Below, piece after piece: positions 18,855 to 62,647 of a stretch of DNA of 64,000 nt. The notes beneath the pieces were generated by a model. That model worked only from the letters and a program-made list of their open reading frames with translations. It was not told the origin of the DNA and did not search any database. Made by a program: the position numbers and the translations under genes. Source of the DNA: an uncultured Clostridia bacterium (GTDB lineage: Bacteria; Bacillota; Clostridia; Christensenellales; UBA1242); contig CAKVGH010000004.1 in assembly GCA_934747255.1 (NCBI GenBank), positions 11,526 through 75,525 on the forward strand, written 5' to 3'. Within the stretch, counting starts at the first letter, position 1, and each line of letters begins with the position of its first letter.

Positions 18855-21818
18855 TTAAAACATCATTGAATCAGTTTCTTCTTCCTTGTTTTCCAAGAAA
18901 ATTTCGTCAACAATTCGTTGTGCTTTTGCTTCATTAAAACTATATTTTTCGCCAGATTTTTCACAATTAGCAATTTCATTAAGTTCAGTTATGATAACAT
19001 CTTTAAGCATAAGTTCAGGTAAAACATTATTTAATTGTTTGAATAAGCCATCTTTTGAGTTATTTCCGTAATACTTTTCTTTTAACTCCATCATTTCTAA
19101 CTGACATTCAAATGAATCTTCATCTCCAAATGTTTCAATAAGTCTATTGTATTCATTGTTATACTTATTTATAAACATTTTTGAGTATTTATTTGAAGAT
19201 GAACAAATAATCTTTTTAACCAATTCTACATTATTCATTTTCAAAGTATCATAATCCACTACTGAATTGCTTAATTTTCTTGATAAATATGGAATAAATA
19301 TTTTTTCAAGACTTGATTTCAAAAGCATTAAATTTTTTACTGTTTGTTTATCTGTCAATTCAATCAATGTTACTAAATTCTCGTCTGTGCTTTTTTCCAT
19401 ATTGTATAATTTATACATTAGAATGATAAGTTTTTTAACTGAATCGTATCTTTTATTAGATAAAAGTAATTTATCACTTAATTTTTCTGGATTTGGAGAT
19501 AACATAGAGACAATAACTGGTTTTACCGAAGTAGTAAGCGTATTGCTGATTTTTTCTTGCATTATTGTGTTGAAATTTCTTTTAGCAGGTGCTGGTTCTA
19601 CTGGTTGTGAGTTTGACTGCTTTTGAGCAAGTTGTGCTTTTAATTGGTCAATTTGGTGTTGTAATTCGAGCATATCTTTTTCTTTTTGAGAAAGTTCCGC
19701 ATCTTTTTGATTTAATAAAGTATCTTTTTGTGTAATTTCGGCAGTTGCTTGATTGAGTAAAGAATCTTTTTGAGTTAACTCTTTGTCTTTTTGGCTTAAC
19801 AATGAGTCCTTTTGTGTCAACTCTTCTTCCTTTTGTGTTAATTCAGTGTTTTGTTTGCTAATTACATTATTTTGATTATCAATTTGTGCTTGCTTTTGAG
19901 AAAGTTCTGCTTCCAAATTGTTTTTTTCTTCGTTTTTAACAGTATTATCTGCAACTTGTAATTTTTCTTCATTTTCAAGAGTAGTCTCATCAATTTTTTC
20001 ATCAATAGTATTTTGTTGTGAAACTTCGTTTGAATTTGAAGAGTTATTTTCTTCACTTACAACTTCTGCTATTGTATCTGTTTTTTCATCAACTATTGCA
20101 TTGCTATCGCTTTCGCTAACATTTGATTGAGTATTTTCTTCGTCATCTACAATATCAATTACTCGATTATCTTCACTGATAGTCTTATTGGATACATTAT
20201 TTTCAATATTATCAAGGGTGCTTTCACTTGTTGCTATATTGTTTGAAGCAATATTCATTTTATCTTCGTAATCAACAACTATTTTTTCGTCTAAATGTTC
20301 ATCAGCATTAACTATTTCTTCTCTTGCAGAAACGCTAATATTAAGTTCTTTTTCAATTTTTTCAACTGTTTCTCTTGCTGCGTTAACAAAACCAAAACAA
20401 TCAACACAAGCAATAAGTTCTTCCTTTGAAATATGGTTATGATTTGTTACTAAATTGTTTGATTTGTTAAGACCTGTCTTTGCTGATACCATATCGTTTT
20501 TAACTACTTCAATGTCAACATTGTCATCTACATCACTTTCAAGCAATTTGTTCATTTTACTAATATAACCGCCATAGTAATAATGATAAAAATCTTTTTC
20601 TTTTAAGTTATTGTAATTTATTAAAACTCTATTTGCTAAATCAACATTTTGGAAGTCGAGCAAATATTCTTGTTCAGCCAAAACCAAACTCTCTAATGAA
20701 GTAATTTCGTCTTGATTGGTTGTTCTTAATCCCAATTTATTGTTGAGTGTTTTAACTTCGTCCAAAGTCATTCCAAAACAAGTAAATACTTTTGTAACAT
20801 CATCAATAATGGCAGTAGACATTGCATAAATTACGCCTTGTTTGTTAAGTTTTGATGCAATAAATGAAAGTTTTTTGCAAATTGAATAGTTCAATAGTTT
20901 TAACACTTGTGCATATTCTTCTTTGTCATAAACAAGTTTTACAAAGTTTTCTGTTGCAATTAAATTTGAAAGTATCTTAAAATCTGCTTCTACTGATTGT
21001 TTGTCATTTAATTCGTTATATGCTTCAAGTGCCTTTGCAACAGGTGTATTATAAACATATAGTTTTAAGTAACTTTCTAATGAATTACAACTGCAAACAT
21101 ATTTTTCACAAACAGCCATAACAGCGTGCAAAGTTTGAAGTACAACTCCGTAAGTTTCCTTGCCCAAAGATTTTGAAACATAAAGTTTACCATCTTCAAT
21201 TTTGGCAGTATCGCCATTATACTCATCAACATACAAATTAAATTTTTCAAATATTAAAGTTTTTACTTTTTCGTATGCTTGTGCGATTTTTTCTTCGTTG
21301 AATGAAGGAATGACATTTTTATTATCTATGTAACAATTATTCAAAATGTCGTCATCGCTTTCGAGTACTCTTGAAAGTCCTGCTTCAAATCTAATTTGAT
21401 TTAAGTCTGTTAATAATTCGAAAGGCGTACTTTTAATAGTATCTTCGTTATTCAAAATAGAACTAATTTGTATTGCCAAGTCGTTGATAAAATCATTGTA
21501 AAAAATGTGTTTACCACCAAGACAAGAAGCAATTTTTTCTTTTAATTCTGCAACACTCTTTACCTTGACTTTTTTGCCTTGCAATTCTTTAATGTTGTCG
21601 TCTGTAATATTTTTTTCTGTTATTGTAGCATTAAAAACATCATCAAAGTTTTTTGACTTAACATTGTTATAATACGCACCAAGTAGTGAACAAAAAGTTT
21701 CTTCGTAATCATTTTCGTTAATGTAACTATGACTACAAAGTTTTTCAAAAGTTTTAATTTTTTCATCCATTGTTTGATTGATATATCGTAATGCATTGTG
21801 TGCTTGACTATTATTCAT
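18855..21818 (-). CDS. Large hypothetical protein (987 aa) with central acidic/Asn-Ser-rich region and heptad QKD coiled-coil repeats
   Basis: I start it at ATG 21818 (GAGG 8 nt upstream and its own promoter), not the track GTG at 21857. It has no TM helices and no motif I recognise. Confidence 0.6.
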   Translation of the reverse strand: MNNSQAHNALRYINQTMDEKIKTFEKLCSHSYINENDYEETFCSLLGAYYNNVKSKNFDDVFNATITEKNITDDNIKELQGKKVKVKSVAELKEKIASCLGGKHIFYNDFINDLAIQISSILNNEDTIKSTPFELLTDLNQIRFEAGLSRVLESDDDILNNCYIDNKNVIPSFNEEKIAQAYEKVKTLIFEKFNLYVDEYNGDTAKIEDGKLYVSKSLGKETYGVVLQTLHAVMAVCEKYVCSCNSLESYLKLYVYNTPVAKALEAYNELNDKQSVEADFKILSNLIATENFVKLVYDKEEYAQVLKLLNYSICKKLSFIASKLNKQGVIYAMSTAIIDDVTKVFTCFGMTLDEVKTLNNKLGLRTTNQDEITSLESLVLAEQEYLLDFQNVDLANRVLINYNNLKEKDFYHYYYGGYISKMNKLLESDVDDNVDIEVVKNDMVSAKTGLNKSNNLVTNHNHISKEELIACVDCFGFVNAARETVEKIEKELNISVSAREEIVNADEHLDEKIVVDYEDKMNIASNNIATSESTLDNIENNVSNKTISEDNRVIDIVDDEENTQSNVSESDSNAIVDEKTDTIAEVVSEENNSSNSNEVSQQNTIDEKIDETTLENEEKLQVADNTVKNEEKNNLEAELSQKQAQIDNQNNVISKQNTELTQKEEELTQKDSLLSQKDKELTQKDSLLNQATAEITQKDTLLNQKDAELSQKEKDMLELQHQIDQLKAQLAQKQSNSQPVEPAPAKRNFNTIMQEKISNTLTTSVKPVIVSMLSPNPEKLSDKLLLSNKRYDSVKKLIILMYKLYNMEKSTDENLVTLIELTDKQTVKNLMLLKSSLEKIFIPYLSRKLSNSVVDYDTLKMNNVELVKKIICSSSNKYSKMFINKYNNEYNRLIETFGDEDSFECQLEMMELKEKYYGNNSKDGLFKQLNNVLPELMLKDVIITELNEIANCEKSGEKYSFNEAKAQRIVDEIFLENKEEETDSMMF
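19672..19845 (-). repeat. In-frame heptad repeat block encoding (T/S)QKD(S/T)LL(N/S)-type units
   Basis: Protein reads LTQKEEELTQKDSLLSQKDKELTQKDSLLNQATAEITQKDTLLNQKDAELSQKEKDM. The DNA shows repeated tctttttg(a/t)g units. Confidence 0.7.
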
Positions 21819-21847
21819 ATATAATACCTCACAATAATTTCGTATAT

Positions 21848-21876
21848 ATAATACCACAATATTTTATAAATAGCAA
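21848..21876 (-). promoter_or_regulatory. Sigma-A-type promoter of the 987-aa gene
   Basis: Minus strand reads TTGCTA (21876-21871), a 17-nt spacer, then TATTAT (21853-21848) with an extended -10 TGG. Confidence 0.45.
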
Positions 21877-21901: not shown

Positions 21902-21927
21902 AAAAAAGCGTAAAATTTTACGCTTTT
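21902..21927 (-). terminator. Terminator after the VirB4 gene
   Basis: Perfect palindrome aaaagcgtaaaattttacgctttt at 21903-21926, overlapping the VirB4 stop. A U-run follows on the minus strand. Confidence 0.55.
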
Positions 21928-24644
21928 CCTAACTGTTTGTCCAGTTTTTCCATTTCTAATTTATCTTGGTGCATTTTTTCTATCATAGGTCTTGTGTAAC
22001 CTTCGATTTCAAACATATCTCTTACTTGGTCGTAAGCGTGAATCTTTAAGAAAGTTCTTGCTAGTGGCGATGTGATAAGGAATGCTTCACCACGATTTGC
22101 TTGAACGATTGTTTGTTGTTCGTCTTCGTTAATACCACCCGCATTTCGATAAAGTTCGACAAGGTCGGTCATATCATTTGGAGCAAGAGATAGAACCATA
22201 GTAAATTGCGATGCGTTAATAATCGCTGTTGATTGCTTTGCAATTTCTGCAGAACCTACGAAGTCCTTAATGTTCTGTGTGATGATAATTTGCATACCAT
22301 CATATTTTCTAATACGCTTTGCAAGTGTTTGCATAAAGTCAAGCGCAATAGGGTATTTTGCATCAATAAAGACGTGGGCTTCATCGACTGTTACAATAAT
22401 TTTACGCCTATCGGAATCGCTTTCCTTAAAGCCCATCATTGCATTAAACTCTTTGTTTTTAATAATTTCGTTGTTCAAATATCTCAATACAAGGAGCATC
22501 TGTGCATTTGCTAATACTTTGTTTTGGTTAGCAAGTAGCGAACGGAAACTAAAAACAACGAAGTTTTCCTTTGTTTCCAAAGTTGTTGGACCATTCCATA
22601 AGTTTGCATTTCGTCCACCTGTTGCAAATTTTTGAATATATGTTTGAATAATTTGGTACATACGCCTTAAATACTCATCTTTTTCGTTTGCTACTTTTTC
22701 AAGTACGATTTTGTATAAGTCGTCAAATATTGGGAAATCTTCTGGTGTCAATTTAGTCAAATCGGTTGCTGAATCAATGCCTTTTTGTTTGTACATATCA
22801 ATAACCAAACTATTGACTTTTTCAAATGCGTCCGAGTTCATTCCGTCCAGAATAACACGGAAATATTGTTCAAGGAACTGCAAGTGTCCAGCATAGTCTT
22901 CCTGTTCTGCCATACCTTCTTCGGCTTGAAGCGAAGGTGTGATATGGAATGGGTTAATTCTTCCCTGCAAACCAGAACCTACATCAATAACTTTTCCGCA
23001 AAGGTTGTTAGAAAGTGTAGCATATTCGTATTCAGGGTCGAGAACGAAAATTTTACTGTTATCACCTGCCATATTTGCAAGCAAGTTTTTGGTTGCGAAT
23101 GATTTACCACCACCACTCTTACCAATAATCATCATATTTGAGTTAACTCTTTCACTGTCTCGTCTAAAAAAGTTAATAAATACATTGCCGTGATTGTTAT
23201 AGCCAATATAGAAACCACCCGGGTCGCTCATTGCACTAGATATGAATGGGAAGCAAGCAGATAGTGCTGTTGTGTTGATACCACGCTTGTTTTCCTTAAT
23301 TGTGTCGAGCCTAGAAATGTTTTGACTGACGAAAGCGTCCACTTGACGACCAAACATTTCGGTAAACTTAAAGCCATTTTCTTTTAATAATGACCTAATT
23401 TCCTTTTTCATATATTCTTCACAAGTAATGTGAATATTTACATTAAACAGACCTTCGTTACTATTTTTAATATCTGTCAAAACTTGTCTTAATGTTTGCA
23501 AGTGAGTTTCGTTTTCAATACGCTTACTGGTCTTGTTGGAATAGCCGACTTTTGCTTCCATTTCGACAATCGCCTTATCGAGCATTTTTTCGGCATCTAC
23601 TCTTGATATAGGATTAAAATTCATTACAACTTTTGTGTTTGGCATACTTGTAATTGGAAATAGCCAGCCGTTGTAAACTGTCAATGGATAGTCAGTGATA
23701 CAAAAGGTTCGGTATTCAGCACCATCAATTTTGGTGTAACCTGTTTTGAATTCAACTTTTTCTGGTGTTGCCCAGTCAATCAAACTAATACTGCTCTTAT
23801 TTTCAGCTTCTCTTTCATCAAACATTTTGGTATAGTTTGCTTTTAAGAATACGCCAAGTTCTTTTCCACGACAGATTTTTGCTCTAATTGGAGTTTGACC
23901 ACTGCCAAGCGAAGATATAATTCCTTCGACAGTATCAACAAGCGAACTTTTGTTTTTATCATAAATTGTCAAATAGTAACAATCTGCATATTGCTTGTTT
24001 ACATCATTTGCTTCAAGCATTTTTGCAACTCTGGTTTGGAAAATAACCGTTCTTGCTTCTACTTCGTCTTCCGAAACTTCGCCTTTTTGTTGCATTCGAA
24101 GCATAGAATCATATTTTTTTTCATCATCATTGATATATTCGTCCATTAAAATTGCCTTATTTATTTTAACTAGACTAGCGTCTTGGTCGGTGTTAATACG
24201 CATAAGTGCACTTCTAAACGAACGAATATAAGCATTTTGTTTTTCTTCGTTAAGGAGCAAAAATTCTACTGGCTTAACTTCCAAAACCATACCATAGTAC
24301 GAACCATAATCAATGATTTTTTCGTCAATTATTGATTCGTAAGGGACAAGCTTTTTAATGTCTTCATAGTGTTTTAATTTGTTTTTGGAATACTTTTTGG
24401 TGTAAGCCATAAATCTAAACATCAACAAAACTGTGATATACATTTTTTGTCCGTCAGCAAGTGGCAAAAATAGTAGCACGCCAAATGCTAAAAATGCTAT
24501 TGCTGCCACAATATGATAGGCAAAATTACTTGTTAAAAGCAAAACAAAAAGACCGATGACGCAAAGACCAATAATTACATCTGGCCAAGTTACACCCGGT
24601 AAAAATTCTGTTCTAACTTTGGTTTTTCTTGGTATGTAGTACAT
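21918..24644 (-). CDS. virB4: VirB3-like::VirB4 fusion, type IV secretion ATPase (TraE/TrsE/PrgJ family)
   Basis: 908 aa. Residues 1 to about 85 start YIPRKTKVRTEF and carry two hydrophobic helices (VIIGLCVIGLFVLLLT, IVAAIAFLAFGVLLFLPL), like PrgI/VirB3 proteins. The rest has Walker A IIGKSGGGKSF, Walker B IIVTVDEAHVF and IIITQN. Confidence 0.85.
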   Translation of the reverse strand: MYYIPRKTKVRTEFLPGVTWPDVIIGLCVIGLFVLLLTSNFAYHIVAAIAFLAFGVLLFLPLADGQKMYITVLLMFRFMAYTKKYSKNKLKHYEDIKKLVPYESIIDEKIIDYGSYYGMVLEVKPVEFLLLNEEKQNAYIRSFRSALMRINTDQDASLVKINKAILMDEYINDDEKKYDSMLRMQQKGEVSEDEVEARTVIFQTRVAKMLEANDVNKQYADCYYLTIYDKNKSSLVDTVEGIISSLGSGQTPIRAKICRGKELGVFLKANYTKMFDEREAENKSSISLIDWATPEKVEFKTGYTKIDGAEYRTFCITDYPLTVYNGWLFPITSMPNTKVVMNFNPISRVDAEKMLDKAIVEMEAKVGYSNKTSKRIENETHLQTLRQVLTDIKNSNEGLFNVNIHITCEEYMKKEIRSLLKENGFKFTEMFGRQVDAFVSQNISRLDTIKENKRGINTTALSACFPFISSAMSDPGGFYIGYNNHGNVFINFFRRDSERVNSNMMIIGKSGGGKSFATKNLLANMAGDNSKIFVLDPEYEYATLSNNLCGKVIDVGSGLQGRINPFHITPSLQAEEGMAEQEDYAGHLQFLEQYFRVILDGMNSDAFEKVNSLVIDMYKQKGIDSATDLTKLTPEDFPIFDDLYKIVLEKVANEKDEYLRRMYQIIQTYIQKFATGGRNANLWNGPTTLETKENFVVFSFRSLLANQNKVLANAQMLLVLRYLNNEIIKNKEFNAMMGFKESDSDRRKIIVTVDEAHVFIDAKYPIALDFMQTLAKRIRKYDGMQIIITQNIKDFVGSAEIAKQSTAIINASQFTMVLSLAPNDMTDLVELYRNAGGINEDEQQTIVQANRGEAFLITSPLARTFLKIHAYDQVRDMFEIEGYTRPMIEKMHQDKLEMEKLDKQLGKA

Positions 24645-24814: not shown

Positions 24815-26941
24815 TTATTTTTTATTTTGAGTTGAACCTTTAATGTAGGTAATTCCCTCCTTACTTTTTAAGGCTTTTTCAATTGGTTTTGTGTTTTTTT
24901 CAATCGCTCTCATATATGTATTTTTTGACCTTGTATATCTTACCCCTGGTTGTCTTGTTGGCTTAAATGTGCTAGACTTTTCAACATTTTCTTCTGGTTG
25001 AGTATAACTAGGTGCAATAACTGTTTTGTTAGAATGTGGGTTCATCTTTTTTGTTGATGATTCCGTACTACTCAAATCAGCTTGATTATTGAGAGTGTTT
25101 TTTGCCGAAAGTTCTGCAATTTTTTTATTTGTTTTTTCCAGTTTTCTTTCAGCCTTTTTGTTTATTGCATTATTCACTCTATTTGAACGCATATGATAGA
25201 TACCACTAAATGCATTTCCTGTCGTTTTGGCAATATTTGTTACACCAGTTTTTATGGCCTTTGGTGAAACATCAATACCTTTTCCGCCAAGTCCATCTTT
25301 AAATGGTTTTGCCAATCCATTCGATGCAAAGCCAACTATGTTTGATTTTGCTTGTTTTAATCTAACTTTTGCTTGTTCGTCATATTTTGATACTTTTTCC
25401 GTTTTTACATCTTCAAATTTTTTAGTAGCATTGGCAAGATTTTGTTTTTTAATCTCATTGTTTGGGTCTGCTTTTAATTCTTTTTGAGCTTGCTTCATTT
25501 CATCTTTGGCTTCAATATATTTTGGATTCAACTTTTGAGTCATACCCATAGCCTTGTTTGCTGCTCCACCAATCAAACCAGCCGCAATACCAACACCTGT
25601 ACCAATTCCTTTGGTAACTCTTTGCATTTGGTCTTTTGTTTGATTAAATAAATCTTCTTTAATACCTATTAGTGCCGCCAAATCTTTTGAGAAATTCTTA
25701 AAGAACATAAAGCCAGCGCAAGTGATTAAAAGTTGTAAGAAACTATTTAATCCCAAGCCACCAATTGTGCTTAACACAGAGCCATCGTTTGCTCCAAATA
25801 ATGTTATTGTTTTTAATGGTCCAAACAACATCATCATCAAGTTAAGAGATACTACCACTGAATAAGCAAGGAGAACATTTTGAATAAACATTTTTTTCCA
25901 TTCTTTTATTGGATTTTCATCTAAAGGCATAACTGAACATACAACTGGTGAAATACATAATAAAATTACGATTTCAAACATACGCTTAATTAAACCAATC
26001 GCTGCTTCTAATAAAATCCAAACGATAATAATTAGTGCAATCAATGCAAGAATATAGTTGAAATGCGATAAATCATAGTAGTAAAACACTTGGTCTGGGT
26101 TATAAATACTAAATGAACTTAAATCATTATCATTACTGATTGATAAAACATATTTATAGTAACATTCATCACTGGTTGAGAAAATATTTCCTAACCCGTC
26201 TAAATTGTCAAAATCGAATTTTTTTGGAGTAAATGAAGCTGATTGCTCAAATGCCATATCAATTGCATTTGCAATACCTTCCTTTGTACTTGCAGAGATA
26301 ACTCCCATATTGTTGATACCATCTTTACCATTTGTACCGTACAAGTCATCTCTAAATGTCTCACTCAATCTTGCTCTATTTGCATCTTGTGAACAAGCCC
26401 TAAATATCATTACACTTGCACGAGTAATTTCGCCTTGGTTTGTTGCACCGTCTAGCGATTTCAGTAAGGCATTTCCCATAAATATACCTAAAATCGCTAC
26501 AACAGGAACCATAAAGAAGTTTAACAATGCTCTTAATGCACTAGAAAAGATTTTTGACTTAGATTTTCTGTTGCTATCACCATTGGCCAATGTTTCTTGT
26601 TTTATCAATGAAACGATAGTTACTATAATTAGTAAAACAACAGCCAAAATCACCAATGACCAAAACACATTTTGTACGGTTTGGTTATTAAATAAAGATA
26701 AAACAATATCTCCATTGGTTGCTTCTCCATTTACATAATATGTATCAAGTCCTGCTAGTTTTCTAAACAATAATTGAACCGCATCTAATATTGCAAATAA
26801 TGAACAAATTATTAGTCTATAAAATAGTTGAAGCAAACTATATCCAATAACACTAAAAGAGTTTTGAAAAAAGTTGCCCACCCAATTTAAGATGTCACTA
26901 ACAAAACTATTTAATTGTGAAAAGTGTAAAGTTAAATTCAT
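24815..26941 (-). CDS. Polytopic membrane protein, VirB6-like channel candidate
   Basis: 708 aa with at least 7 hydrophobic helices by eye (for example VFWSLVILAVVLLIIVTIVSLI, FFMVPVVAILGIFMG, ILALIALIIIVWILLEAAIGLI, VLLAYSVVVSLNLMMMLFGPL, GIGTGVGIAAGLIGGAA), then a Lys-rich hydrophilic C-terminal third. It sits just upstream of VirB4. Confidence 0.6.
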   Translation of the reverse strand: MNLTLHFSQLNSFVSDILNWVGNFFQNSFSVIGYSLLQLFYRLIICSLFAILDAVQLLFRKLAGLDTYYVNGEATNGDIVLSLFNNQTVQNVFWSLVILAVVLLIIVTIVSLIKQETLANGDSNRKSKSKIFSSALRALLNFFMVPVVAILGIFMGNALLKSLDGATNQGEITRASVMIFRACSQDANRARLSETFRDDLYGTNGKDGINNMGVISASTKEGIANAIDMAFEQSASFTPKKFDFDNLDGLGNIFSTSDECYYKYVLSISNDNDLSSFSIYNPDQVFYYYDLSHFNYILALIALIIIVWILLEAAIGLIKRMFEIVILLCISPVVCSVMPLDENPIKEWKKMFIQNVLLAYSVVVSLNLMMMLFGPLKTITLFGANDGSVLSTIGGLGLNSFLQLLITCAGFMFFKNFSKDLAALIGIKEDLFNQTKDQMQRVTKGIGTGVGIAAGLIGGAANKAMGMTQKLNPKYIEAKDEMKQAQKELKADPNNEIKKQNLANATKKFEDVKTEKVSKYDEQAKVRLKQAKSNIVGFASNGLAKPFKDGLGGKGIDVSPKAIKTGVTNIAKTTGNAFSGIYHMRSNRVNNAINKKAERKLEKTNKKIAELSAKNTLNNQADLSSTESSTKKMNPHSNKTVIAPSYTQPEENVEKSSTFKPTRQPGVRYTRSKNTYMRAIEKNTKPIEKALKSKEGITYIKGSTQNKK

Positions 26942-27028: not shown

Positions 27029-29197
27029 TTATGACAAACCTTCTGTCGCTGGCAAAAAGCCCGTGAATCCAAAAGTAAATGGATTGTCGTTTGAAGCGGC
27101 AAAGATAATTTCAATATACTCGCAAGATTTTGTTACAGCACTCAAATTGCTATCGCTATACGAATACAATTTTTCGCCCTTTGGACCAATCATCGAAGTA
27201 TATTCTGGGTTAGTTTTTGGTGATGGAGCAAAAATTGATGCGTGCCCTGTTGGTCTATTTGCTAATTTTTTGCTTACATCATAGTAACCAGTAGCAAAAG
27301 GCTCTATATAATAAAGTTCTTTTTGCTTTTTATCGCCGTTAATGTCTTCATATTCATAGTTGAAAGTATGGTCATTTGCTATTCCGTTGAATTTTGCTTT
27401 TTTGAACATTTCATCAAATTCCACTGAGAACATACAACCTTCTTCCCACTTTCCGCCAACATTCTTTACAGAATATGGACCATTGACATTTTGATTGCTT
27501 GCAATCAAGAATAAAGATTTGTCATCGCCTTTGCCGTTATCAAATTGTGCAAAGCCACTGCCATTGCGGTAATATCTTGCATAAACATTAAGATTAACTT
27601 GGACGCCTTCCGTACTTTCCAAAATCATATAAATTGAACCGATAGAGTTTTTGTCTAGTCCCCTATCTTTTGTACATAAAAGCAAACTTTTGTATGCTCT
27701 TTTTTCCATCTTGCAACTGCTTGAACTGGTTGTAGAAGATGAAACTTCCATTTCGCTATAAGTAAAGTCCTTTGAAAATACATTTGAAATTGTTGGATAA
27801 TTGTTATTGCCTAAATATTTTTCAAAAACTCCGTCCCTTTTTATCTCCAATTTTTCGTTATCATTATGCTCACCTTTCAAAACATTGTCTACAATGTAAG
27901 AAGTTGTGTTTTCATAATTTCTAAAATACGAAAGTGGTCTATATTTTGCAATAGATTTTCCGTTTACGCTAGTCAAAGCAATATCAACTTTGTTGTCGTT
28001 ATTAAAATCTTGCCAAACCTTGACTGTTAGTTGTTCGTTTGCAACTGATTGTGCATAAACCTGCTCAATGGCTTGCTTAACTGACAGCAACTCATTTTGA
28101 TTGATAAAAGATGACAAGCCATCATATTTTGAATTGGAATTATTAGATGTATCGTAACTTAAACCTGCTTTTTCATCAGCATAATAGTAACTTTCGCCTT
28201 CAAATTTATCTCTACTATTTGGAGCAATATAATCGCCTGTTGAGTTATCGTATACCAAGAATTTTCGGTCATTAGCCATAGCATTAGAGCCAATCACTCT
28301 ATCTAAAATAAATCTAACAAATGCTTGTTCTTCCGTTGATACTGCATCAACTGTTGATGGCATAATACCACTATGCTTAACTATGAATGACAAATCTGTT
28401 GCTGCCGATTTATAATCTTTGCTTGAAGTATTTGCAATAGCATCGTAATCTCTCAAAAATTCCGCATAAACAATATCAAATGTGTTTGTATTTTGATAGA
28501 ACTTGTCCACAATCGATAGTATTGCGTAAGTCATTTTCCATAAGTTGCTAGATTTATCTGCCGAACTAATATCTGTTATGTCGCAACCTATAAACAAACT
28601 AAATGTAGAAGTTGTTGCACCGGTTGGCATAAACACCCACTGTTGACTTGCCATAGCATTTTTATAACTAATTTTGTTGGCGTCCAAATCTGGATTATAT
28701 GTATATTTTACCTGCGTGCTAACATTGTTAATAGTTTCGTTTTCAATGTATTCAATTTTATTTGATAAGGAAATGGTATATGAGCCAAAACCTTTTTTTA
28801 AGTTTTCAAGTTCAATGGAAGAATATTCTTCTTGCCCACCACCATAGTTTTGAAGCAAACCAACCATAGTATCAAGGGCTAACATTTGAGTAGTTTCCAA
28901 AGTTTCGCTAGCAAATTTTTTGAATTCTTCGTTTTGTGTTGCAGAACTTGTACTAACCGTATACGAAACCTTGCCTGCTGTTAAGTAATCAGTAACTTTG
29001 TAAGTTGGAGTTATTGGACTTGGTGGGTTTGGTGTTTCTGAACCGCCACCACTTCCGCCCGAGCCACCGCCAGTTTCGCCCGAACCACCACCACTGTCAC
29101 TTGGAAAATCTTCGAACGAACAGCCCACAAAAACAAGTGGAGAAAATGCAAAAATAACACTTAACATAATCAAAAGTAATCGTTTAAGTTTTTTCAT
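27029..29197 (-). CDS. Large surface lipoprotein (722 aa) of the T4SS-like island
   Basis: Signal peptide and lipobox MKKLKRLLLIMLSVIFAFSPLVFVGCSF, then a Gly/Ser/Pro linker (SGGGSGETGGGSGGSGGGSETPNPPSP). I use ATG 29197 (GGGAG 9 nt upstream) instead of the track GTG at 29203. Confidence 0.7.
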   Translation of the reverse strand: MKKLKRLLLIMLSVIFAFSPLVFVGCSFEDFPSDSGGGSGETGGGSGGSGGGSETPNPPSPITPTYKVTDYLTAGKVSYTVSTSSATQNEEFKKFASETLETTQMLALDTMVGLLQNYGGGQEEYSSIELENLKKGFGSYTISLSNKIEYIENETINNVSTQVKYTYNPDLDANKISYKNAMASQQWVFMPTGATTSTFSLFIGCDITDISSADKSSNLWKMTYAILSIVDKFYQNTNTFDIVYAEFLRDYDAIANTSSKDYKSAATDLSFIVKHSGIMPSTVDAVSTEEQAFVRFILDRVIGSNAMANDRKFLVYDNSTGDYIAPNSRDKFEGESYYYADEKAGLSYDTSNNSNSKYDGLSSFINQNELLSVKQAIEQVYAQSVANEQLTVKVWQDFNNDNKVDIALTSVNGKSIAKYRPLSYFRNYENTTSYIVDNVLKGEHNDNEKLEIKRDGVFEKYLGNNNYPTISNVFSKDFTYSEMEVSSSTTSSSSCKMEKRAYKSLLLCTKDRGLDKNSIGSIYMILESTEGVQVNLNVYARYYRNGSGFAQFDNGKGDDKSLFLIASNQNVNGPYSVKNVGGKWEEGCMFSVEFDEMFKKAKFNGIANDHTFNYEYEDINGDKKQKELYYIEPFATGYYDVSKKLANRPTGHASIFAPSPKTNPEYTSMIGPKGEKLYSYSDSNLSAVTKSCEYIEIIFAASNDNPFTFGFTGFLPATEGLS

Positions 29198-29230
29198 TGT
29201 CACTATCTCCCTTATATATTATTTACATAT

Positions 29231-29465: not shown

Positions 29466-29786
29466 TTAAATCAAACCAATCATTGTTTTAGTGGCATCTG
29501 AATCACCTACCCAGTTTGGTAAGTTTTCCAGTAACAATTTAAGACCAAATATCAATATGATTAAAGTTGCCATAGTAATTAACACGCCAATAATTCTTTT
29601 TTTTGCCGTTTCTCTTTTTTCAGCACTATCAGATTTTGCCATATTAACAGCCAAAATAATAGCATAAATGCTACCACCTGTTGCGAGCAACGAAACCACT
29701 GGAATTGTAATAACATTCAAGACATCTACTATTGGTTGTAAAAATTCAACATTTAATAGCAATAAATTCATTATAAATGCGTCCAT
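29466..29786 (-). CDS. VirB2/TrbC-like two-helix small membrane protein (pilin candidate)
   Basis: 106 aa. Two hydrophobic helices (ITIPVVSLLATGGSIYAIILAVNM and IIGVLITMATLIILIFGLKLL) are separated by the charged loop AKSDSAEKRETAKKR. AGGAGA ribosome-binding site. The gene has its own strong promoter and terminator. Confidence 0.55.
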   Translation of the reverse strand: MDAFIMNLLLLNVEFLQPIVDVLNVITIPVVSLLATGGSIYAIILAVNMAKSDSAEKRETAKKRIIGVLITMATLIILIFGLKLLLENLPNWVGDSDATKTMIGLI

Positions 29787-30168: not shown

Positions 30169-32199
30169 ATGAAAAAAGTAGGAAAATTTTTATTAAAAGC
30201 CGTTTTAACTTTAATTGGAAGTTTAATTATCGGCTACTTAATAACGAGTTTTATCAAAGCAAAAACAATTGTTTGGAATGTTGATTATTTGTTTGACACA
30301 ACTACTCTTGCCATTGCAGGTGGAGTTGTACTTGTAGTTTTGATAATGATGTTCAACAAATTTGATGCCGACAAGCCTACTAGCTCAAAAGGTAACAAGG
30401 TTGTTGATGACAAGGGTAATAAAGTTCAACAATATTACAGCACAAAATGGGTTTCTCTTGAAGATTTAAGAACCAACCCAAAATTTATGTTTAACACCTA
30501 CTCCAATCTAAAAAATCAAAATAAAGATGGTATTCCTATTAGAGCAGAATATATCAAGGGCAAAACAGAAATCAATATGCACAAGCCTATCCACACCATT
30601 GTAATTGGTACAACTGGTTCTGGTAAAACAACAATGCTTGTTGACCCAACTATTCAAATTTTAAGTGAAACAAAAAGCAAGCCTAGTATGGTAATTTCCG
30701 ACCCAAAAGGCGAATTATATGCTCATAACGCAGTAAAACTTAAAGAAAGTGGCTACGATGTTCAAGTAGTTGACCTTCGTGAGCCAGATAAAAGTGCAAG
30801 GTGGAATCCTATTGAAAGAGCCTATGATTCTTACCAAAGAGCACACAATCTTGTAAACGAAGTAAAAAAACACGAAGGCGACCCAAAAGTACTAAAACTA
30901 TTAACTATTCCTGATGCAGACTATTCAAAAGCGTGGTACGAATTTGACGGAGTTGCTTACGACAAACTTGATACTCTAAAAAAAGACATTGCAGCAATGA
31001 AAGACAAGTTAATCAACATTGCTATGGAAGATATTCAGGATATTGCCGAAACTCTCTGCCCTGTTCAAGGACAAGACCCAAGTTGGTCACGAGGTGCACA
31101 AGGCTTCATTAGAGCAATTATGATTGCGATGCTAGAAGATAGTTTGAACCCAGAACTTGGAATGACAAAAGAAAAATTTAACTTTTATAATTTATACAAA
31201 ATTTCTGGTATTAGAGATGAAGGAAACGACAACTTTGTAACTTTAAGAAAATATTTTAATGGCAGACCAAAAACCAGCCCTTCTTATGACCTAGCAGGAA
31301 CTGTTGTAAACAACGCAGGTGCAACAAGTAAAGGTTATATGGGACATGTAACAGGTTCATTAAATACATTTGCTGATACTGGCGTGTGTTACCTAACTAG
31401 CGGAACTGACATTGATTTTAGTCAATTTGCCGACAAGCCAACTGCCCTATTCATTATTATCCCAGACGAAAAAAACACAAGACACGCAATTGCAAATATT
31501 TATATCTCACAACTATACAAAATGCTTATCGAAAGAGCAAACCAACGAGCAAAACAAACTGGTGGCGAGCCAGAACTCCCACGAAATGTTTACTTCCTAC
31601 TTGATGAGTTCGGTAACTTGCCAAAATTTGAAAAAATGAAAAGTTTTATTACCGCTGGTAGAAGCCGAAGAATTTACCTTATGCTCGTACTTCAAGACTA
31701 CACCCAACTTGCTTCTATTTACGGAGAGCAAGACGCAGCGACTATTAGAAACAATTGTAATATTCACATATTTATTGGAACAAAAGATGCCAAGACTCGT
31801 GAAGAATTTAGTAAAAATTGTGGTAATATTCAAATTAACATTATCAGCCAAAACAAAAGCACAAGCACAGACAAGAATACTGGTTCATCAAACGGTTCAA
31901 GTACAAGCGAAAGTAGTCAGTACCAACAAAGGCCACTCATTAGCCCTGACGAACTTGACCATTTGCCAGCAGAAACCGTAGTTGTAAGTATGTTTGGTGA
32001 CTTTGCTGCAAAAACAAAGTTTACGCCATCATATAAAAACCCACAATACAACTTTACTCGTCAACCAATAATGTACAAACCTAGCAAATACCTTGACCAA
32101 GAAGCAGTTTATTACGATATTAAGGAACGCAATGCCAAAGTATTAAAAGAAGAAGATGATGACGATGACGACTTTGACTTTTCAAAGTTTAGAAAATAA
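30169..32199 (+). CDS. virD4: Type IV secretion coupling protein (VirD4/TraG/TraD family)
   Basis: 676 aa with two N-terminal TM helices, Walker A VIGTTGSGKTT, Walker B VYFLLDEFGNLP and SRRIYLMLVLQDYTQL. The C-terminal tail is acidic (EEDDDDDDFDF). Confidence 0.85.
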   Translation: MKKVGKFLLKAVLTLIGSLIIGYLITSFIKAKTIVWNVDYLFDTTTLAIAGGVVLVVLIMMFNKFDADKPTSSKGNKVVDDKGNKVQQYYSTKWVSLEDLRTNPKFMFNTYSNLKNQNKDGIPIRAEYIKGKTEINMHKPIHTIVIGTTGSGKTTMLVDPTIQILSETKSKPSMVISDPKGELYAHNAVKLKESGYDVQVVDLREPDKSARWNPIERAYDSYQRAHNLVNEVKKHEGDPKVLKLLTIPDADYSKAWYEFDGVAYDKLDTLKKDIAAMKDKLINIAMEDIQDIAETLCPVQGQDPSWSRGAQGFIRAIMIAMLEDSLNPELGMTKEKFNFYNLYKISGIRDEGNDNFVTLRKYFNGRPKTSPSYDLAGTVVNNAGATSKGYMGHVTGSLNTFADTGVCYLTSGTDIDFSQFADKPTALFIIIPDEKNTRHAIANIYISQLYKMLIERANQRAKQTGGEPELPRNVYFLLDEFGNLPKFEKMKSFITAGRSRRIYLMLVLQDYTQLASIYGEQDAATIRNNCNIHIFIGTKDAKTREEFSKNCGNIQINIISQNKSTSTDKNTGSSNGSSTSESSQYQQRPLISPDELDHLPAETVVVSMFGDFAAKTKFTPSYKNPQYNFTRQPIMYKPSKYLDQEAVYYDIKERNAKVLKEEDDDDDDFDFSKFRK

Positions 32200-32202
32200 A
32201 TT

Positions 32203-32229
32203 AAAACCACTGTTTACAGTGGTTTTTTT
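32203..32229 (+). terminator. Terminator after VirD4
   Basis: Hairpin aaaaccactg-ttta-cagtggtttt at 32203-32226, followed by a T-run. Confidence 0.75.
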
Positions 32230-32397: not shown

Positions 32398-32427
32398 TTG
32401 AAAATAAATTTGTTTGTGTGTTAAAAT
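32398..32427 (+). promoter_or_regulatory. Sigma-A-type promoter of the giant surface-protein gene
   Basis: TTGAAA (32398-32403), an 18-nt spacer, then TAAAAT (32422-32427) with an extended -10 TGT. The TGTGTTAAAAT core is the same as in the pilin-like gene promoter. Confidence 0.5.
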
Positions 32428-32462
32428 ATATTCGTAATTTTATTACGATAGGAGAAATCTAT

Positions 32463-35400
32463 ATGAGAAGTAATACAAAGTCTAAAATTTTATTTCCAAT
32501 AATAGCAATTTTCAGTTTGCTACTTTCCAGTTTTGGTGGAATTTTTTTGGCATTAAGATTAAGACAAAAAGATGAAGTTTTTGCTGTTGATACACCTATT
32601 GAAAGTCCAATAGGAGTTAAAAAAATATCGGCATCAAAAGACAATGCAACTGAAAGTTATCTTTTTGATACCGAAACCAGTGTAGTAGTACAGTCAAGCG
32701 AAAATCAAACAATCAAAAATAACGAACTAGTTATATTAAACAACACTTCCACAGGTAAGGAAGTTGTTTTAGTTTCGTTTAATATTGAAAATTTAAGCGT
32801 AAGTCTTGATGATGACAAAAACGAAGTTTATAAGCATCAAACTATTTCGACAGACACGAGTAATACAATTTACTATACATTGCAAGTTAATGCTTATCTA
32901 AACGGCAAGCCATTGCTTACTAACGAAAGCATTAAGGACCAAACTGCAACCGCTACAAAATATTACTATCAAGTGTTAAATCTAGATAGTTCAGCAAGCA
33001 ACCCTAACCCACTTAAATATAGTGACGGAACAATTGTTGACGACCCACAAGGCAAATTTACCTTTGTTTTTGAATATTCTCCAAAGGTTGGAACTGTTGT
33101 AGAACCAGCTAAAAAGCAAACTATTGACTTTTATGTTTACAATGAAAGTTACTTTGAAAATGTAACCAACTCTAATGGCACACTTGTAAACGAAAGTGAA
33201 AAAATTGAGCCAAGACTTTATAACACAGAAAAAATTAACAAATCATATTTCAATTCTTCTAACGATATTATTGATGGCACAGAATACAACTACTTTAATT
33301 ACACTATAAAGACAACTGACTACGAAAACAAGGCTAATAGTCAAGACTCACTAAAATATCCAACTATTTCGTATGACGCAAAAAAATATGCCGTAAAATA
33401 TACTCACACACTTTATGGTGTTAAAAACGAATATAAATTCATTTTCAGTGGCAAATATGACGAAAATAATAATGCAGTAATAAGTGTTTACAAAAATGAT
33501 AATTTAATGACAAATGATGAACTAAAAAGTATAAATTTAGTTATCAACACAAACGGAACATTTACCGATATTATATTAAACAACATTGGCGAATACGATA
33601 TTTACTATAATTTTGTTATTGAAAACAAAGAGTATAGCGAAACTACTCAACAATTTGTTGTAACTGATTACATAATCAACTCCAACTCATCTACTGGATA
33701 TAGTGATGAAAACATATCTTTTGTTAAAAAGGAAAATTGGCAAAGAGTTGGCGATGTAAAATTGTACCTTTATGGCTATCAACTATATTACAGCGACTAT
33801 ACAAATTCAAGCATTAGTAACAAAGAATTCAAAAACATTAGTGAAAACTTGCTAACAGATGTTACTTATAAAAACAATGCTGACAACTTTACTGACAGAA
33901 GCAAAGACCTAGACATTTTAACAACAATTTGCTCAACAAACCAAGCACCAGTGTTTATGGACTATTATGCTAGAATGACAACTAATAGCAACAAGACAGT
34001 AAGTTATTACAAATACTGGGCTTCCAAAGAAGCATACTTATCTAACCCATATACTCCACAAAGTATTAAAGAAAACATTACAAACAACGAACGCTTTACT
34101 CAAAATGGCTATTACCAAGTATTTATTCAATATCAATTTGATAACTACAAGTATTTGGCAAATGATGCTTTGAATGACGGAAGCAACACAGACCACTATC
34201 AATTCTTCTCGTTTGAAATTAAAAACAGCGAGCCTACAATTAGTGTTAAAACTTCTAACACAGAGGAAACGACTCTAAACGGAGTGGACATTCCTACAAA
34301 CTCATTTACAAACCAAAATGTTTCAATTAGTTGGAGCACAAACAATACAAGTTTTGATATTGCACCAAGAGTTACAATCAACAAACACATTTTTGGAGCA
34401 GAAAATGGAACTTGGCAAACAGTTTACAGCGATACAAATTCTACTATCAACTCTGCTCTTTATGGAATAAGCAAACAATCTTCGGCAAATGAAATTTTAA
34501 TTGAAAAGACCGCCGAGATTGATACAAATGGACTTTACGAAGTTATTGTCAACTATGGCCCAGGTATCCATACAGTTGTAAAATATCGTTTCTCTATCGA
34601 CTACACAGATATTCAAGGCATAAAAACCTATGCTATTACAAATCAAAACGGAAACACAGTGAATTTATCACAAACACAAGAAAGTTTAATCAATAGTGCA
34701 TTTGCTCTTGACTGGAACGACAAGCAAAGTGGTGCTATCATAACTACTACATACGACTTTATTCCACTCGAAAAAATCGAAGGCTTTGATGCTATAAATC
34801 AAAATAAATTGCCTGACCTAACAAAATATAGTACTGCAGAAGCATTGCAGGAAGAAATTGCAAAAGGATTAAACTTAAAAAATGGTTATATATTTAATTC
34901 CGTTACACAAAATATTCCTTACATAAAGCTTTCTTACACAATTACAAACGAAGTCATTACTCTAAATGATATTAACTCAATGCGTACAAGTGCGGGACTA
35001 TACATATTTACAATAAAAGATAGTGCTGGCAATGTTAGTTACAAAACAATGATTGTTGACAACTCTTCTCCACTCGTATTAAGTTTCACAGACGAAGACA
35101 AAAATAGTGATGGAGATAGAATCTACTTTGTAGCTAACGACAGCAAAAAGATAGCATCAAGAAACACAATAGTATTCTGGGGCGATAACAAAGTTATTCA
35201 AATTAACACTGCTCTTTCTACCTACATTGGTGGACTAAACGCAGATATTAAAAAGATAATCACTCAAAACTATACTTTTGATGACAGTAATTTATTAGTT
35301 GCTCTAAAAAATGCAACATCTGTTGAAAAAAATATCATTGCAGATAAATCTTATACTCAAACAGCAGAAATTTCTAATTCTAGTCAAGTGTTCTATATCA

Positions 35401-38400
35401 AATATACAGACGCACAACTAACCGAACTAAATTCTAGCAAACAAAAACAAGAAGTTATAAACAAATACTGGAATTACAGTGACCACATTCACTCAATCAC
35501 AGTAAATGATAACTCAAACCAATTTGCACAAACAAATAACAACAAAGTTTACTCAACTAGTGCATTATTTGGTTTGGAAATGAACAGCGATAACTCATTG
35601 CTTATGGCGTATGTTAGTGGCGACTATCCAACAAATGATAGCCAAAGACTATATCAAGCCGAAATTGCTACTGGCGACAAACTTTACCTTGAATGGATTG
35701 AAAACGAAGGCAACGATTTTGAAGTTAAGTCAATAAAATACTACTATTATCCACTTGACTTTGATACAACAAGTGCCAACTATCCATATTCAAGCACTCC
35801 ACAACTAGAAAAGGAACTTGATTTAACACAAAGCATCAGTTCTACTGTTAGCGGAAACCAATCTATAAAAGTTATGTCTAGTGCAATCAACACAGAAGGC
35901 ACAACAAAATCATTACAAGGACTTTACATTGTAAGGCGTGAATACACTTCTTCTCTTCACTCTAATGACGCAGACAATACTTCTGGTGATTACAGTCCAA
36001 GATATTACATCTTTATTATTGACCGAAACAAAGTAATCAGTTATTCAAGCACAAACTCCCTTATTGGTGAAAAAATTGGTTTACAATTAAGCAACAACTA
36101 TTATGGTTATGAAAACTATCAAAAGTTGTTTGCAGGAAGTGACTTCTTACTAGACACTGACGAAAACGCATCAAAATTTATTACAAGTAAACTTGCAGTA
36201 ACATTCATTAACGAAATTGCAAAACTTAACAAATATGATACTTACTCAAAAACAATCAGTGATAATAATCAACCGCTAGAAATTAACAACGAAAACACTG
36301 GCTTTAACATTGCTAAACAAGTTAAAACAACATTTAATCTTAAAGAGTCGGTTATTTACTTTAACAGCACAAAGAATTTTAACTCTATACCCCCTACTAC
36401 TGACCCAGAAGCATTAGCATTTAGAAAAAACGGCTTCTACAAAGTTGTTTTGCAAGATAAATCAGCAAACAAAGAGCAAGACAGCAACGAATACTCATTT
36501 ATCTTCCAAATAAATGTTGAAGAACCGCAAGCAAATATCATTAAGTACACTCAAAATCAAATTACTGGCAAAACAGAATATTTGTACTACACCGAAGGTC
36601 AAGAAAATATTTCCACCAACAAACGCAATATGTTAGTTGTTTGGAACAAGCCAGCAAGCACATTAGGTTTTGATGCCGAAATCGACCGCTATAACTTTGA
36701 TATTTCTATCAAATTTGATAGTGGAAAAGAAATTGAATTAACTGTTAAAAACGGTGTTCTCTCCGCTAGCGGTATCGCAATTAGCGGAAATGCTAGTTTA
36801 GATATAACCGACATTAGCACAGACGAGTTAAAACAAAATTCTAGTTTTGAAAACCCAACTTGGGACTATCACCTAGACTTTGCAAAAATATTTGAAATTC
36901 TTGGCGAAGATTACTCAAAACAAAGTGCAAAATATGATATTACATTAAGATATGTTGGTAACGAAGACGACTATTCTGGTCTATCTAACGAACAATCTTC
37001 TGTAAACAAATATTTCTACACAATAAAATCAGTTGTATTTGACTTTAACAAGCCATCATACAACTTTGAAAGATTATTCAATAGCGATGCATTCCTATCT
37101 TCAAACAACATTACATTGCAAGACTTTATAAAGGAAGATAGTGATATTAACATTGAAAACTATGCCTTTACAGTTACTCCAAACTTTACTATCAACCAAA
37201 TGGTAACAACTGGTGATAGCATTTGGACAACAAATATGGACACATATCAAATGTTCATTAGAAAATACGACAAGTATGCAAGTGAGTCTATGGCAAGTCA
37301 ACAAAGTTTGACACCTGATGACCCAAGATACGAAAATCGTGATGACTATCCAAATAGATACAGATTTGAAGAAAACTTGAAAGTAAATAATCAAAATGTT
37401 TACACAAACATTACTGATTACTACTGGAATGGTGACGAAAAACACAGTTACACACTTCAAGACATTTTGGCAAACTTTAACCTTGAAACAAACAATTACT
37501 ACGAAATTATTGAGCGTGACTTTGCTGGAAATTACAGAGTTTATACAATTTATGTTAAGCAAGACAGTGATACAATTTCGAGTGCAAACTTTGTTTTAAG
37601 CAACTATGATTCTACCCCTACTCCAAGCGAAAAACTATTTACTAAAATTGATAGATATTCGGTTAACGACACAACAACTGAAATTACATTAAAAACAAAA
37701 GAAGAACTTTCTGGATTTATTGACAGTCTTGACTTTGAAGCATTATTTAGTCAAAACCTAACATTAAAGACATTGATTGACTTTAATGACGAAAACAGTT
37801 ATGTTCAAAAATACCTATCTGTTTTCATTCAAGATGCAACAAACAGTAAAGACTACCTATTCACTTTAAGTCCAAACGATAATATTGACGAATTTATATC
37901 TCAAATTAACGATTGCATTAAGGTATACAATCAAGACACAGGAAACATTTACTATCTCACATTTATTTCTTCTCTTGGCGAAGTATTAAAAGTGGAACAC
38001 AGAAAACCTAACAAAGACTACCCACAATACACAATTTCTGTTGGCGACACTGGATTTGACATTGAATTTGTAGTAACACTTGACGACAAAAATTCTAGTG
38101 CTTATATCACCGAATTTGAAGCCTACAAGGCAGAAAATGGCGTTATTGACCAAAATAAATTGGAAAATGATAGCAACGGAAAACTTATCATTCAAGATAT
38201 AAAACAATACTTAATTGACAGCAACCTTTCTACCAGCACATTTAGATATTCCTTCCGTATGCAAGGCAATTCGGGAAGCGAATTCTGGATTATATTAAAA
38301 GATAATTTTGGTAGAGAAAAGAAAATTAGACAAATTATTGGTCTAACTGACAATCAAGACAAAATTGTATTTAACGCAGACAGCCAAAATATTCAAACAA

Positions 38401-62578: not shown

Positions 62579-62617
62579 TGATTTTCTCCTTAATAAATTT
62601 GTAATTTCAACTTGATA

Positions 62618-62647
62618 ATTATATAATACATACACTCAAAAAGTCAA
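62618..62647 (-). promoter_or_regulatory. Sigma-A-type promoter of the 1138-aa surface-protein gene
   Basis: Minus strand reads TTGACT (62647-62642), an 18-nt spacer, then TATAAT (62623-62618). Confidence 0.5.

Follow-up and report, generated by a model that had tools for sequence, protein, structure and literature searches.

What is a gene for a 2714-residue protein doing directly behind virD4, the coupling-protein gene of a type IV secretion system (T4SS), in a genome of 1.04 Mb? The question is raised by a stretch of 64,000 nt of contig CAKVGH010000004.1 (assembly GCA_934747255.1), referred to below as the window, from an uncultured bacterium of the family UBA1242 (Christensenellales) whose genome is 98% complete. 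The gene in question, hereafter the giant, is an uninterrupted open reading frame (ORF) at 32463-40607 on the plus strand, as read from the ORF list and its translation, and it starts 263 bp 3' of the end of virD4 (30169-32199, plus strand). An initial annotation made from the DNA alone had described it as the largest gene of the window, lying directly after virD4, and both statements are borne out: the second longest gene encodes 1157 amino acyl residues, and the virD4 product matches T4SS-DNA_transf with an E-value of 2e-54. Of the genome, 0.8% is taken up by the giant and a further ~1.3% by its T4SS. We somewhat favor the interpretation that the giant is the cell-contact fiber of a monoderm T4SS resembling those of mycoplasma integrative and conjugative elements (ICEs), and that it originated as an ICE mating adhesin and is now chromosomally fixed. 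Such a fiber is probably how UBA1242 cells grip other cells.

Judged by its two ends, the giant qualifies as a Sec-dependent type-I membrane protein, in agreement with the N-terminal signal and the C-terminal transmembrane (TM) anchor proposed initially. A basic n-region, a 23-residue hydrophobic core and a V-F-A site (pattern V-x-A) make up a signal peptide of residues 1-41 (32463-32585, plus strand), which is recognized by hydropathy and would be cleaved at this putative site; the alanine is kept in at least 90% of 21 aligned orthologues and the same pattern occurs in the orthologues of 37 loci. At the other end, a single TM helix (residues 2684-2706; 40512-40580, plus strand), indicated by hydropathy and modeled as a helix by AlphaFold2 (AF2), is followed by an 8-residue basic tail, L-R-K-N-M-K-V-K (40581-40604, plus strand), which by its positive charge should lie in the cytoplasm and which conforms to a family pattern R-x-[KR]-x-[KR]-[VIFY]-[KR]-COOH. 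About 75 distinct orthologue C-termini, from stop-to-stop ORFs of 924-4032 residues, share a C-terminal module that approximates G-x-Y-x-[IV]...SGN...K-x-EPLN-(TM)-R-x-[KR]-x-[KR]-[VIFY]-[KR]-COOH. A conservation profile identifies the C-terminal 365 residues (2350-2714; 39510-40604, plus strand), comprising membrane-proximal domains, TM helix and tail, as the most conserved part of the protein. As also noted initially, a sequence scan of the giant detects no LPxTG-like motif. Sortase (PF04203) is missing from all 16 UBA1242 genomes searched (G000, G209, G274-G284, G316, G358, and G389) and present in 7 of 10 genomes sampled outside the family but within the order. This absence accounts for the TM anchor of the giant; surface proteins of UBA1242 must therefore rely on TM or lipid anchors.

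Between signal peptide and TM helix lies an ectodomain of ~2640 residues (32586-40511, plus strand), for which tandem immunoglobulin (Ig)/FN3-like β-sandwiches are predicted. The initial annotation had described the body of the protein as rich in Asn, Thr, Ser, and Tyr, and the composition of the giant is indeed 10.4% N, 9.7% S, 9.4% T, and 6.9% Y, with five cysteines only. It had also reported recurring D-x-AGN strand motifs. The strict form occurs just three times, as D-S-A-G-N at residues 853-857 (35019-35033), as D-F-A-G-N at residues 1686-1690 (37518-37532) within the conserved block YYEIIERDFAGNYRVYTI, and as D-F-A-G-N at residues 2386-2390 (39618-39632), all on the plus strand, but none of these copies varies within the family, and a looser strand motif, G-x-[YFW]-x-phi-x-phi, is found 12 times versus 1.8 +/- 1.3 times in shuffled sequences. 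In addition, a module of ~110 residues is common to the N- and C-terminal halves (hhalign, E = 5e-6). Searches of the giant against Pfam, NCBIfam, and PDB sequence profiles return nothing; when the Pfam threshold is relaxed to E <= 1, DUF5594 is the sole match (E = 0.15), and DUF5011, HYR, and other Ig-like models are absent. The proposed assignment to DUF5011/HYR-type modules is therefore not borne out, and a distant virD4-linked relative (locus L117), which is tied to the giant by profile (E = 1.4e-64), matches Big_13 (206 bits) and BiPBP_C (138 bits) instead.

Structure prediction supports the wider proposal of a β-type, Ig-like surface protein. AF2 models of two segments of 1200 residues each, built from alignments of 35-38 orthologues and leaving out residues 1236-1514, have a mean predicted local distance difference test (pLDDT) of 80.4 for residues 1515-2714 and of 73.5 for residues 36-1235. 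Both models consist almost entirely of β-strands, with the TM helix at the C-terminal end. Foldseek searches of the PDB with either segment match solely chains of Ig/FN3-like sandwiches, with a probability of 1.0, among them titin/MyBP-C, the neck of the Aureispira grappling hook GhpA, DSCAM, α-2-macroglobulins, the S-layer proteins Sap/EA1, a mastigoneme, SpyCEP, and gp130; the TM-scores are ~0.1, as expected with flexible multidomain chains. None of the matches of the two modeled segments has the fold of an enzyme, a lectin, or a toxin. The giant is thus predicted to be a string of diverged Ig-like modules.

How widely is such a protein distributed? A pattern scan of species genomes located 109 giant loci, all in metagenome-assembled genomes (MAGs) of uncultured Clostridia labeled Christensenellales, Christensenella sp., Ca. 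Onthoplasma, or Ca. Caccovivens. HGM11372, which is represented among these loci, shares its GTDB family with the window, and HGM11372 and Onthoplasma have been placed under the family UBA1242 (PMC12306168). A single-protein query proved insensitive, recovering 7 of 11 family genomes, and a profile of the C-terminus was used in its place. With this profile, intact orthologues are found in 247 of 301 UBA1242 genomes and in 50 of 58 genera, nearly always as a single copy, and a search of 1.84 billion proteins yields 561 representative clusters at E <= 1e-10, all of them metagenomic. Among the 150 matches listed, nearly all align to the C-terminal end of proteins of 2300-3900 residues, and the few shorter ones look incomplete. 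The giant defines an unannotated protein family of ~560 representative clusters, whose members in UBA1242 range from 560 to ~4000 residues. The closest homologue found is 70% identical and those from genomes of the same genus are 45-47% identical; dN/dS was set aside because synonymous sites would be saturated at 70% identity. UBA1242 genomes measure ~1 Mb or less, contain unexpected sporulation genes, and miss biosynthetic pathways and transporters, and a partner-dependent lifestyle has been proposed for the family (PMC12306168). Neither that study nor a chicken metatranscriptome study of 2026 (PMC13155120) mentions a secretion or conjugation system.

Within UBA1242, virD4 lies directly 5' of the giant and on the same strand in ~38 loci, including some in which the giants retain as little as 24-27% identity. 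In genera for which the profile detects no giant, the gene 3' of virD4 codes for a protein of 560-1033 residues with a signal peptide, the same last domain, a TM helix, and a tail, which means that position and anchor module have been kept while the length of the stalk has changed.

The pairing extends beyond UBA1242. VirB4 of the same type is encoded in nine other Christensenellales families, and loci were fetched from these nine; the f40 contig ended too early, so that eight loci are informative. In all eight, VirD4, a large ORF, VirB6-like, and VirB4 genes succeed one another in this order on one strand, and a pilin-like gene was detected in one of them. In f8, f11, f16, f34, f36, f38, and f42 the large protein, of 1443-5071 residues, begins with a signal peptide, contains DxxGN modules, and ends in the same last domain, a TM helix, and a basic tail, whereas in f23 an 850-residue ORF with DxxGN motifs is situated ~1 kb 3' of virD4 and a TM helix is absent from its end. 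The large ORF is often coupled translationally with virD4: in five sister loci it overlaps virD4 or adjoins it within ~20 bp. A gene for a MobL relaxase is located directly 5' of virD4 in both loci examined for it (f8 and f11), and ArdC-N/MPTase polyvalent proteins and an SNF2 helicase are encoded near the sister loci. The sister-family loci are genuine conjugative elements. The recurrence of the same pairing on elements of at least eight other families implies that it predates UBA1242 and originated in a transfer operon, and the association with virD4 emphasized in the initial annotation is no accident. Likewise, its view of the giant as the positional counterpart of mating adhesins is supported in kind by the sister elements, although the mobile context does not apply to the window.

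That the T4SS of the window belongs to the chromosome is evident from several observations. None of the proteins encoded in the T4SS cluster contains a relaxase, integrase, or transposase domain. The cluster is flanked by fbaA on one side and by a Rho-like gene, ypeB, sleB, spoIIR, sipL, and spo0A on the other, and gene order and flanks (Rho-like, YpeB, SleB, SpoIIR, and Spo0A) are found again in relatives with giants of no more than 27-45% identity. VirB4 of the window type is present in 287 of 301 family genomes (224 of the 230 of high quality) and in 58 of 58 genera, usually in one copy. Pairwise VirD4 distances track those of housekeeping genes (Mantel r = 0.78-0.79, 0 of 5000 permutations), a fit that is tighter than the one between two housekeeping genes. 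The T4SS of UBA1242 is a vertically inherited core locus, and the term "island" used in the initial annotation is not appropriate.

A core T4SS might still serve DNA transfer. Relaxases of the families PF03432 (MOBP/Q) and PF02486 (MOBT) are encoded neither in the host genome nor in 15 of 16 relatives. A relaxase-less system was nevertheless rejected once MobL had been seen beside virD4 in the sister families and then in 30 of 151 UBA1242 genomes (22 of 58 genera, sometimes in several copies), including the host. The one MobL gene of the host genome (C1:182920-184116) is located on another contig than the T4SS, beside a tyrosine integrase and an integrase fragment, and its product is 37% identical to an ICE-borne MobL encoded next to virD4 in a sister family. 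The surrounding region (C1:170000-190000; L128) also codes for GmrSD, a WYL/WCX regulator, an AAA-M41 protein, KilA-N, and a split serine recombinase. This integrase-flanked island, which has no T4SS of its own, looks like an integrative mobilizable element. Since the VirD4 of the window is the only one in the host genome, the core T4SS may still move DNA, with MobL-bearing mobilizable elements riding on it.

From these data a contact mechanism can be envisaged. The giant would be exported by Sec, lose its signal peptide, and stay anchored by its one C-terminal TM helix with the basic tail in the cytoplasm. Its chain of Ig-like modules, if extended, would project past the wall, with a length of the order of 100 nm as estimated from the usual size of Ig domains. 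As a long pilus is absent in monoderm T4SSs, the fiber would find and hold the target so that the VirD4/VirB4/VirB6 channel could engage. Ancestrally, the giant would have been the mating adhesin of an ICE whose genes ran from MobL relaxase through VirD4, adhesin, pilin, and VirB6 to VirB4, and whose machine and fiber would have become fixed chromosomal genes in UBA1242. There, virD4 and the giant would owe their divergent orientation relative to the channel genes to an inversion, and the giant would have acquired a promoter region of its own. DNA would probably still be moved, given MobL-bearing elements without T4SS scattered through the family, one of them in the host genome, and partner contact for metabolically dependent cells is a possible added role.

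Several observations speak against a contact fiber of the T4SS. The initial annotation had reasoned that orthologues commonly found without adjacent T4SS genes would indicate a generic adhesin; in ~22 of the ~60 UBA1242 loci that are informative, about a third, the giant no longer has virD4 beside it, but all 23 tested genomes with a non-adjacent giant keep the T4SS elsewhere. As giant and T4SS are both near-universal in UBA1242, their co-occurrence says little, and in two of the non-adjacent genomes virD4 is followed by unrelated convergent genes and by nothing comparable to the giant. The linkage evidence within UBA1242 alone is mixed. Furthermore, a recognizable ligand-binding, lectin, or enzyme head is absent from both modeled segments, and according to the conservation profile the N-terminal tip is no more variable than the remainder, contrary to what is usually seen in adhesins subject to diversifying selection. 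The giant of UBA1242 also has its own promoter-like site, and a terminator-like hairpin divides it from virD4. Finally, the giant is not the only very large surface protein of the host genome; there are several more, and ORFs of 1500 residues or longer cover at least 5% of its 1.04 Mb, so that a general role in the envelope is possible.

The alternative that survives best, although we consider it unlikely, assigns the giant such a general role in the envelope or surface coat, whether as an S-layer-like spacer or as a coat with a protective or antigenic function; it would then act without the T4SS and owe its position behind virD4 to inherited gene order in small, slowly rearranging genomes. 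Most of the points just listed favor it, namely the ~22 loci without adjacency and without a replacement beside virD4, the genome share of very long ORFs, and the missing ligand-binding head, and so do the Foldseek matches to Sap/EA1. It is also favored by signals suggesting an independent transcription unit, as claimed initially. A promoter-like site with a TG-extended -10 element, TTGAAA-18-TGnTAAAAT (TTGAAA, 18 nt, TAAAAT; 32398-32427, plus strand), is situated ~35 nt 5' of the start codon, followed by a ribosome-binding site AGGAG (32450-32454, plus strand) that can be read directly 8 nt ahead of the ATG. Terminator-like hairpins are found 3' of virD4 (32203-32226, plus strand) and, as a bidirectional one common to the giant and the convergent Rho-like gene, at 40714-40743. 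The promoter-like site is a consensus match and the hairpins are pattern matches, which in AT-rich DNA are not proof, promoter-like matches being common in this region (83 found versus 56 expected). What argues against a T4SS-independent coat is the pairing on mobile conjugative elements of other families, where the genes overlap or nearly so and lie between relaxase and channel genes; a gene of 5-15 kb is rarely retained by mobile elements without a transfer-related role, and even the shortened orthologues of UBA1242 still sit after virD4.

Slightly less probable still is the idea that the giant is a structural part of the T4SS and not an adhesin, i.e., an extracellular stalk or conduit through the wall that is docked via its conserved membrane-proximal domains, TM helix, and tail, possibly to the acidic-aromatic C-terminus of VirD4. 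The strong conservation of just these C-terminal parts would fit a docked component, as would a tail of fixed length and pattern below an ectodomain that varies from 560 to ~4000 residues, the presence of the acidic-aromatic tail in most VirD4 orthologues, and the lack of any VirB8-like protein or wall hydrolase recognizable in the T4SS cluster by Pfam/NCBIfam scans. Yet a fixed conduit is hard to square with a seven-fold range of ectodomain lengths, and chains of tandem Ig domains are what one typically finds in tethers and adhesins. Moreover, Foldseek detects no oligomerization or pore-like domain in the modeled segments, and the basic tail could be a mere positive-inside stop-transfer signal. 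In VirD4 of the window the acidic-aromatic end, within the last ~20 codons of the gene, reads EEDDDDDDFDFSKFRK, and FDDFDF or IDMDDF is found in others (most orthologues of L001-L083), so that its character is conserved throughout the family; to regard it as a partner of the giant's basic tail is speculation.

The contact-fiber interpretation can be carried further, to an obligate contact organelle in which the fiber grips a partner, the basic tail docks on the C-terminus of VirD4, and contact outside gates transfer inside, be it chromosomal DNA exchange or uptake of macromolecules. We hold this version to be as doubtful as the conduit; if true, the organelle would sustain a spore-forming, biosynthetically poor genome of ~1 Mb and be a Firmicute parallel to the T4SS of Saccharibacteria. 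Some T4SS substrates carry charged C-terminal signals, and the conserved basic tail encoded beside a coupling protein could suggest that the giant is itself a substrate or effector recognized through its C-terminus, but this highly improbable reading was rejected since a canonical Sec signal peptide and a stop-transfer TM helix let one expect co-translational insertion by Sec, and no effector-like domain is found by Pfam or Foldseek.

Monoderm T4SSs are known to rely on surface adhesins (PMC12102498), and the contact fiber proposed here can be compared with them. Like the giant, PrgB of enterococcal and streptococcal plasmids and ICEs belongs to the large surface proteins whose genes accompany a monoderm T4SS, and the presumed common role is that of holding donor and target together where a long pilus is absent (PMC12102498). 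The giant lies beside T4SS or transfer genes in the same manner, in the window, in the ~38 UBA1242 loci, and in the ICE-type loci of sister families. In contrast, the two proteins have no sequence or domain homology, polymer-adhesin and antigen I/II types being unmatched, and whereas PrgB is plasmid-borne and LPXTG/sortase-anchored, the giant is TM-anchored and encoded by a chromosomal core gene. PrgB has a length of roughly 1300 residues. The giant is about twice as long, not several times larger than mating adhesins as had been thought initially.

The closest curated relatives of the T4SS in the window are proteins of mycoplasma ICEs (ICEA/ICEB), as judged from model matches to VirB4 (Mbov_0397, 586 bits), Mbov_0396/MMCAP2_0566, Mbov_0395, and VirD4. 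In these elements the surface lipoprotein CDS14 is required for mating contact (PMC6030558), and the 724-residue lipoprotein encoded in the cluster of the window may be its analogue. However, the components of mycoplasma ICEs given in PMC6030558 include a surface lipoprotein and no giant type-I Ig protein, and the locus of the window is not mobile and has no DDE transposase in its cluster.

As in UBA1242, a conjugation-type T4SS of monoderms is fixed in the tiny genomes of probably partner-dependent bacteria among the Patescibacteria (Saccharimonadia), where the chromosomal and mostly relaxase-less T4SS is essential for epibiotic growth (PMC12102498). Relaxases are rare and unlinked to the T4SS there (PMC12102498), as they are in UBA1242. 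PrgB-type adhesins have not been found in Patescibacteria, for which type IV pili were suggested to mediate attachment (PMC12102498), whereas UBA1242, a family of spore-forming Clostridia, pairs its T4SS with a giant Ig-like fiber.

With the grappling hook protein GhpA of Aureispira (PDB 9flp), the second Foldseek match (E = 3e-14), the giant has in common a long predicted chain of Ig-like β-sandwiches; with a TM-score of ~0.1 and 8% identity this likeness is one of fold class only. SiiE and Ebh are further giant adhesins whose tandem-Ig fibers catch or hold cells. GhpA, SiiE, and Ebh have no known link to a T4SS, and their routes of secretion and anchoring differ from those of the giant. The giant represents a new protein family and is probably a T4SS-linked adhesin that has been domesticated, is TM-anchored, and is very large.

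The interest of the giant derives mainly from its host lineage, a widespread family of uncultured gut Clostridia. Kept intact across this family, giant and T4SS are prime candidates for the contact machinery behind its lifestyle. A comparison of UBA1242 with its sister families offers a rare view of a conjugative transfer module and its adhesin before and after domestication, and the conserved C-terminal anchor module could serve as a family marker.

The genes of the T4SS surround virD4 as follows. VirD4 itself is a coupling protein with two N-terminal TM helices that, besides T4SS-DNA_transf, matches TraG-D_C (E = 3.5e-34) and the NCBIfam model of the CD1115 family (287 bits). On the minus strand follow genes for a pilin-like T4SS protein of the Mbov_0395 family (29466-29786), which with 38.4 bits stays marginally below the cut-off of 40; for the 724-residue lipoprotein (27029-29203), which has a lipobox FVGC and a Gly/Ser linker, evolves fast, and matches no family; for a VirB6-like polytopic protein with six TM helices (24815-26941), which scores 103 bits (cut-off 70) and 118.9 bits (cut-off 90) with the Mbov_0396/MMCAP2_0566 models; and for a VirB4 ATPase with an N-terminal TM hairpin (21918-24644). 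The latter, with 586.4 bits, stays just below the cut-off of 590 of NF045975 (VirB4_plasma), which is passed by 57 of 301 family members. When compared with a relative of the same genus, the giant (45% identity), the VirB6-like protein (42%), and the lipoprotein (34%) are the most diverged, in contrast to VirB4 (86%) and VirD4 (84%), and such fast divergence is typical of exposed proteins. Directly 3' of virB4, a minus-strand gene (18855-21857) codes for a cytoplasmic coiled-coil protein of 1000 residues with Q-K-D/E-x-L-T/S-Q-K repeats, for which there is no family match and no tblastn match in the related loci. The T4SS is rearranged in some UBA1242 genera: in G004 (L130, C5:60000-79999) virD4 does not occur within 20 kb of virB4, and in L129 and L131 the ORF for the ~700-residue lipoprotein is absent between the VirB6-like gene and virD4.

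With respect to orientation, the initial annotation had placed about four fifths of the genes in the window on the minus strand and considered the giant to be head-on to replication. The count holds, as 36 of 45 non-overlapping ORFs of at least 100 residues are on the minus strand. Since the GC skew of the plus strand is negative along the entire 77-kb contig, the minus strand is plausibly the leading one, and we infer the head-on orientation of the giant from this skew.

A full locus of the UBA1242 type, with VirB4, VirB6-like, pilin-like, VirD4, giant, and Rho-like genes, is also present in a MAG labeled "Spirochaetales bacterium" (L014; JBFXFT010000009.1), which is probably mis-binned or mislabeled. 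In many relatives, a second and unrelated giant ORF of 2700-4877 residues is convergent with the virD4-linked one (L003:20338-28358, L039, L040, L042, L059, L066, and L078). Where its C-terminus is complete, in L041, L066, and L078, a TM helix is followed by a tail ending in ERRKRITDERQKLIR; the window lacks this second giant, its virD4-linked one being directly followed by the Rho-like gene. Other giant ORFs of the host genome are located at C7:42181-58080 (at least 5300 residues) and C12:13994-23014 (at least 3007 residues), both of which run to contig ends, and at C1:149371-156696 (2442 residues), C1:108217-114768 (2184 residues, lipoprotein-like), and C10:1-5850 (1950 residues). Among these host giants, the virD4-linked one is the only one with a C-terminal TM helix and basic tail. 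In this genome, which has no sortase, the window itself encodes a further TM-anchored Ig surface protein of 1157 residues (59162-62635, minus strand), with Big_13/Bact_surface_Ig-like matches near its C-terminus and a C-terminal TM helix followed by a lysine-rich tail.

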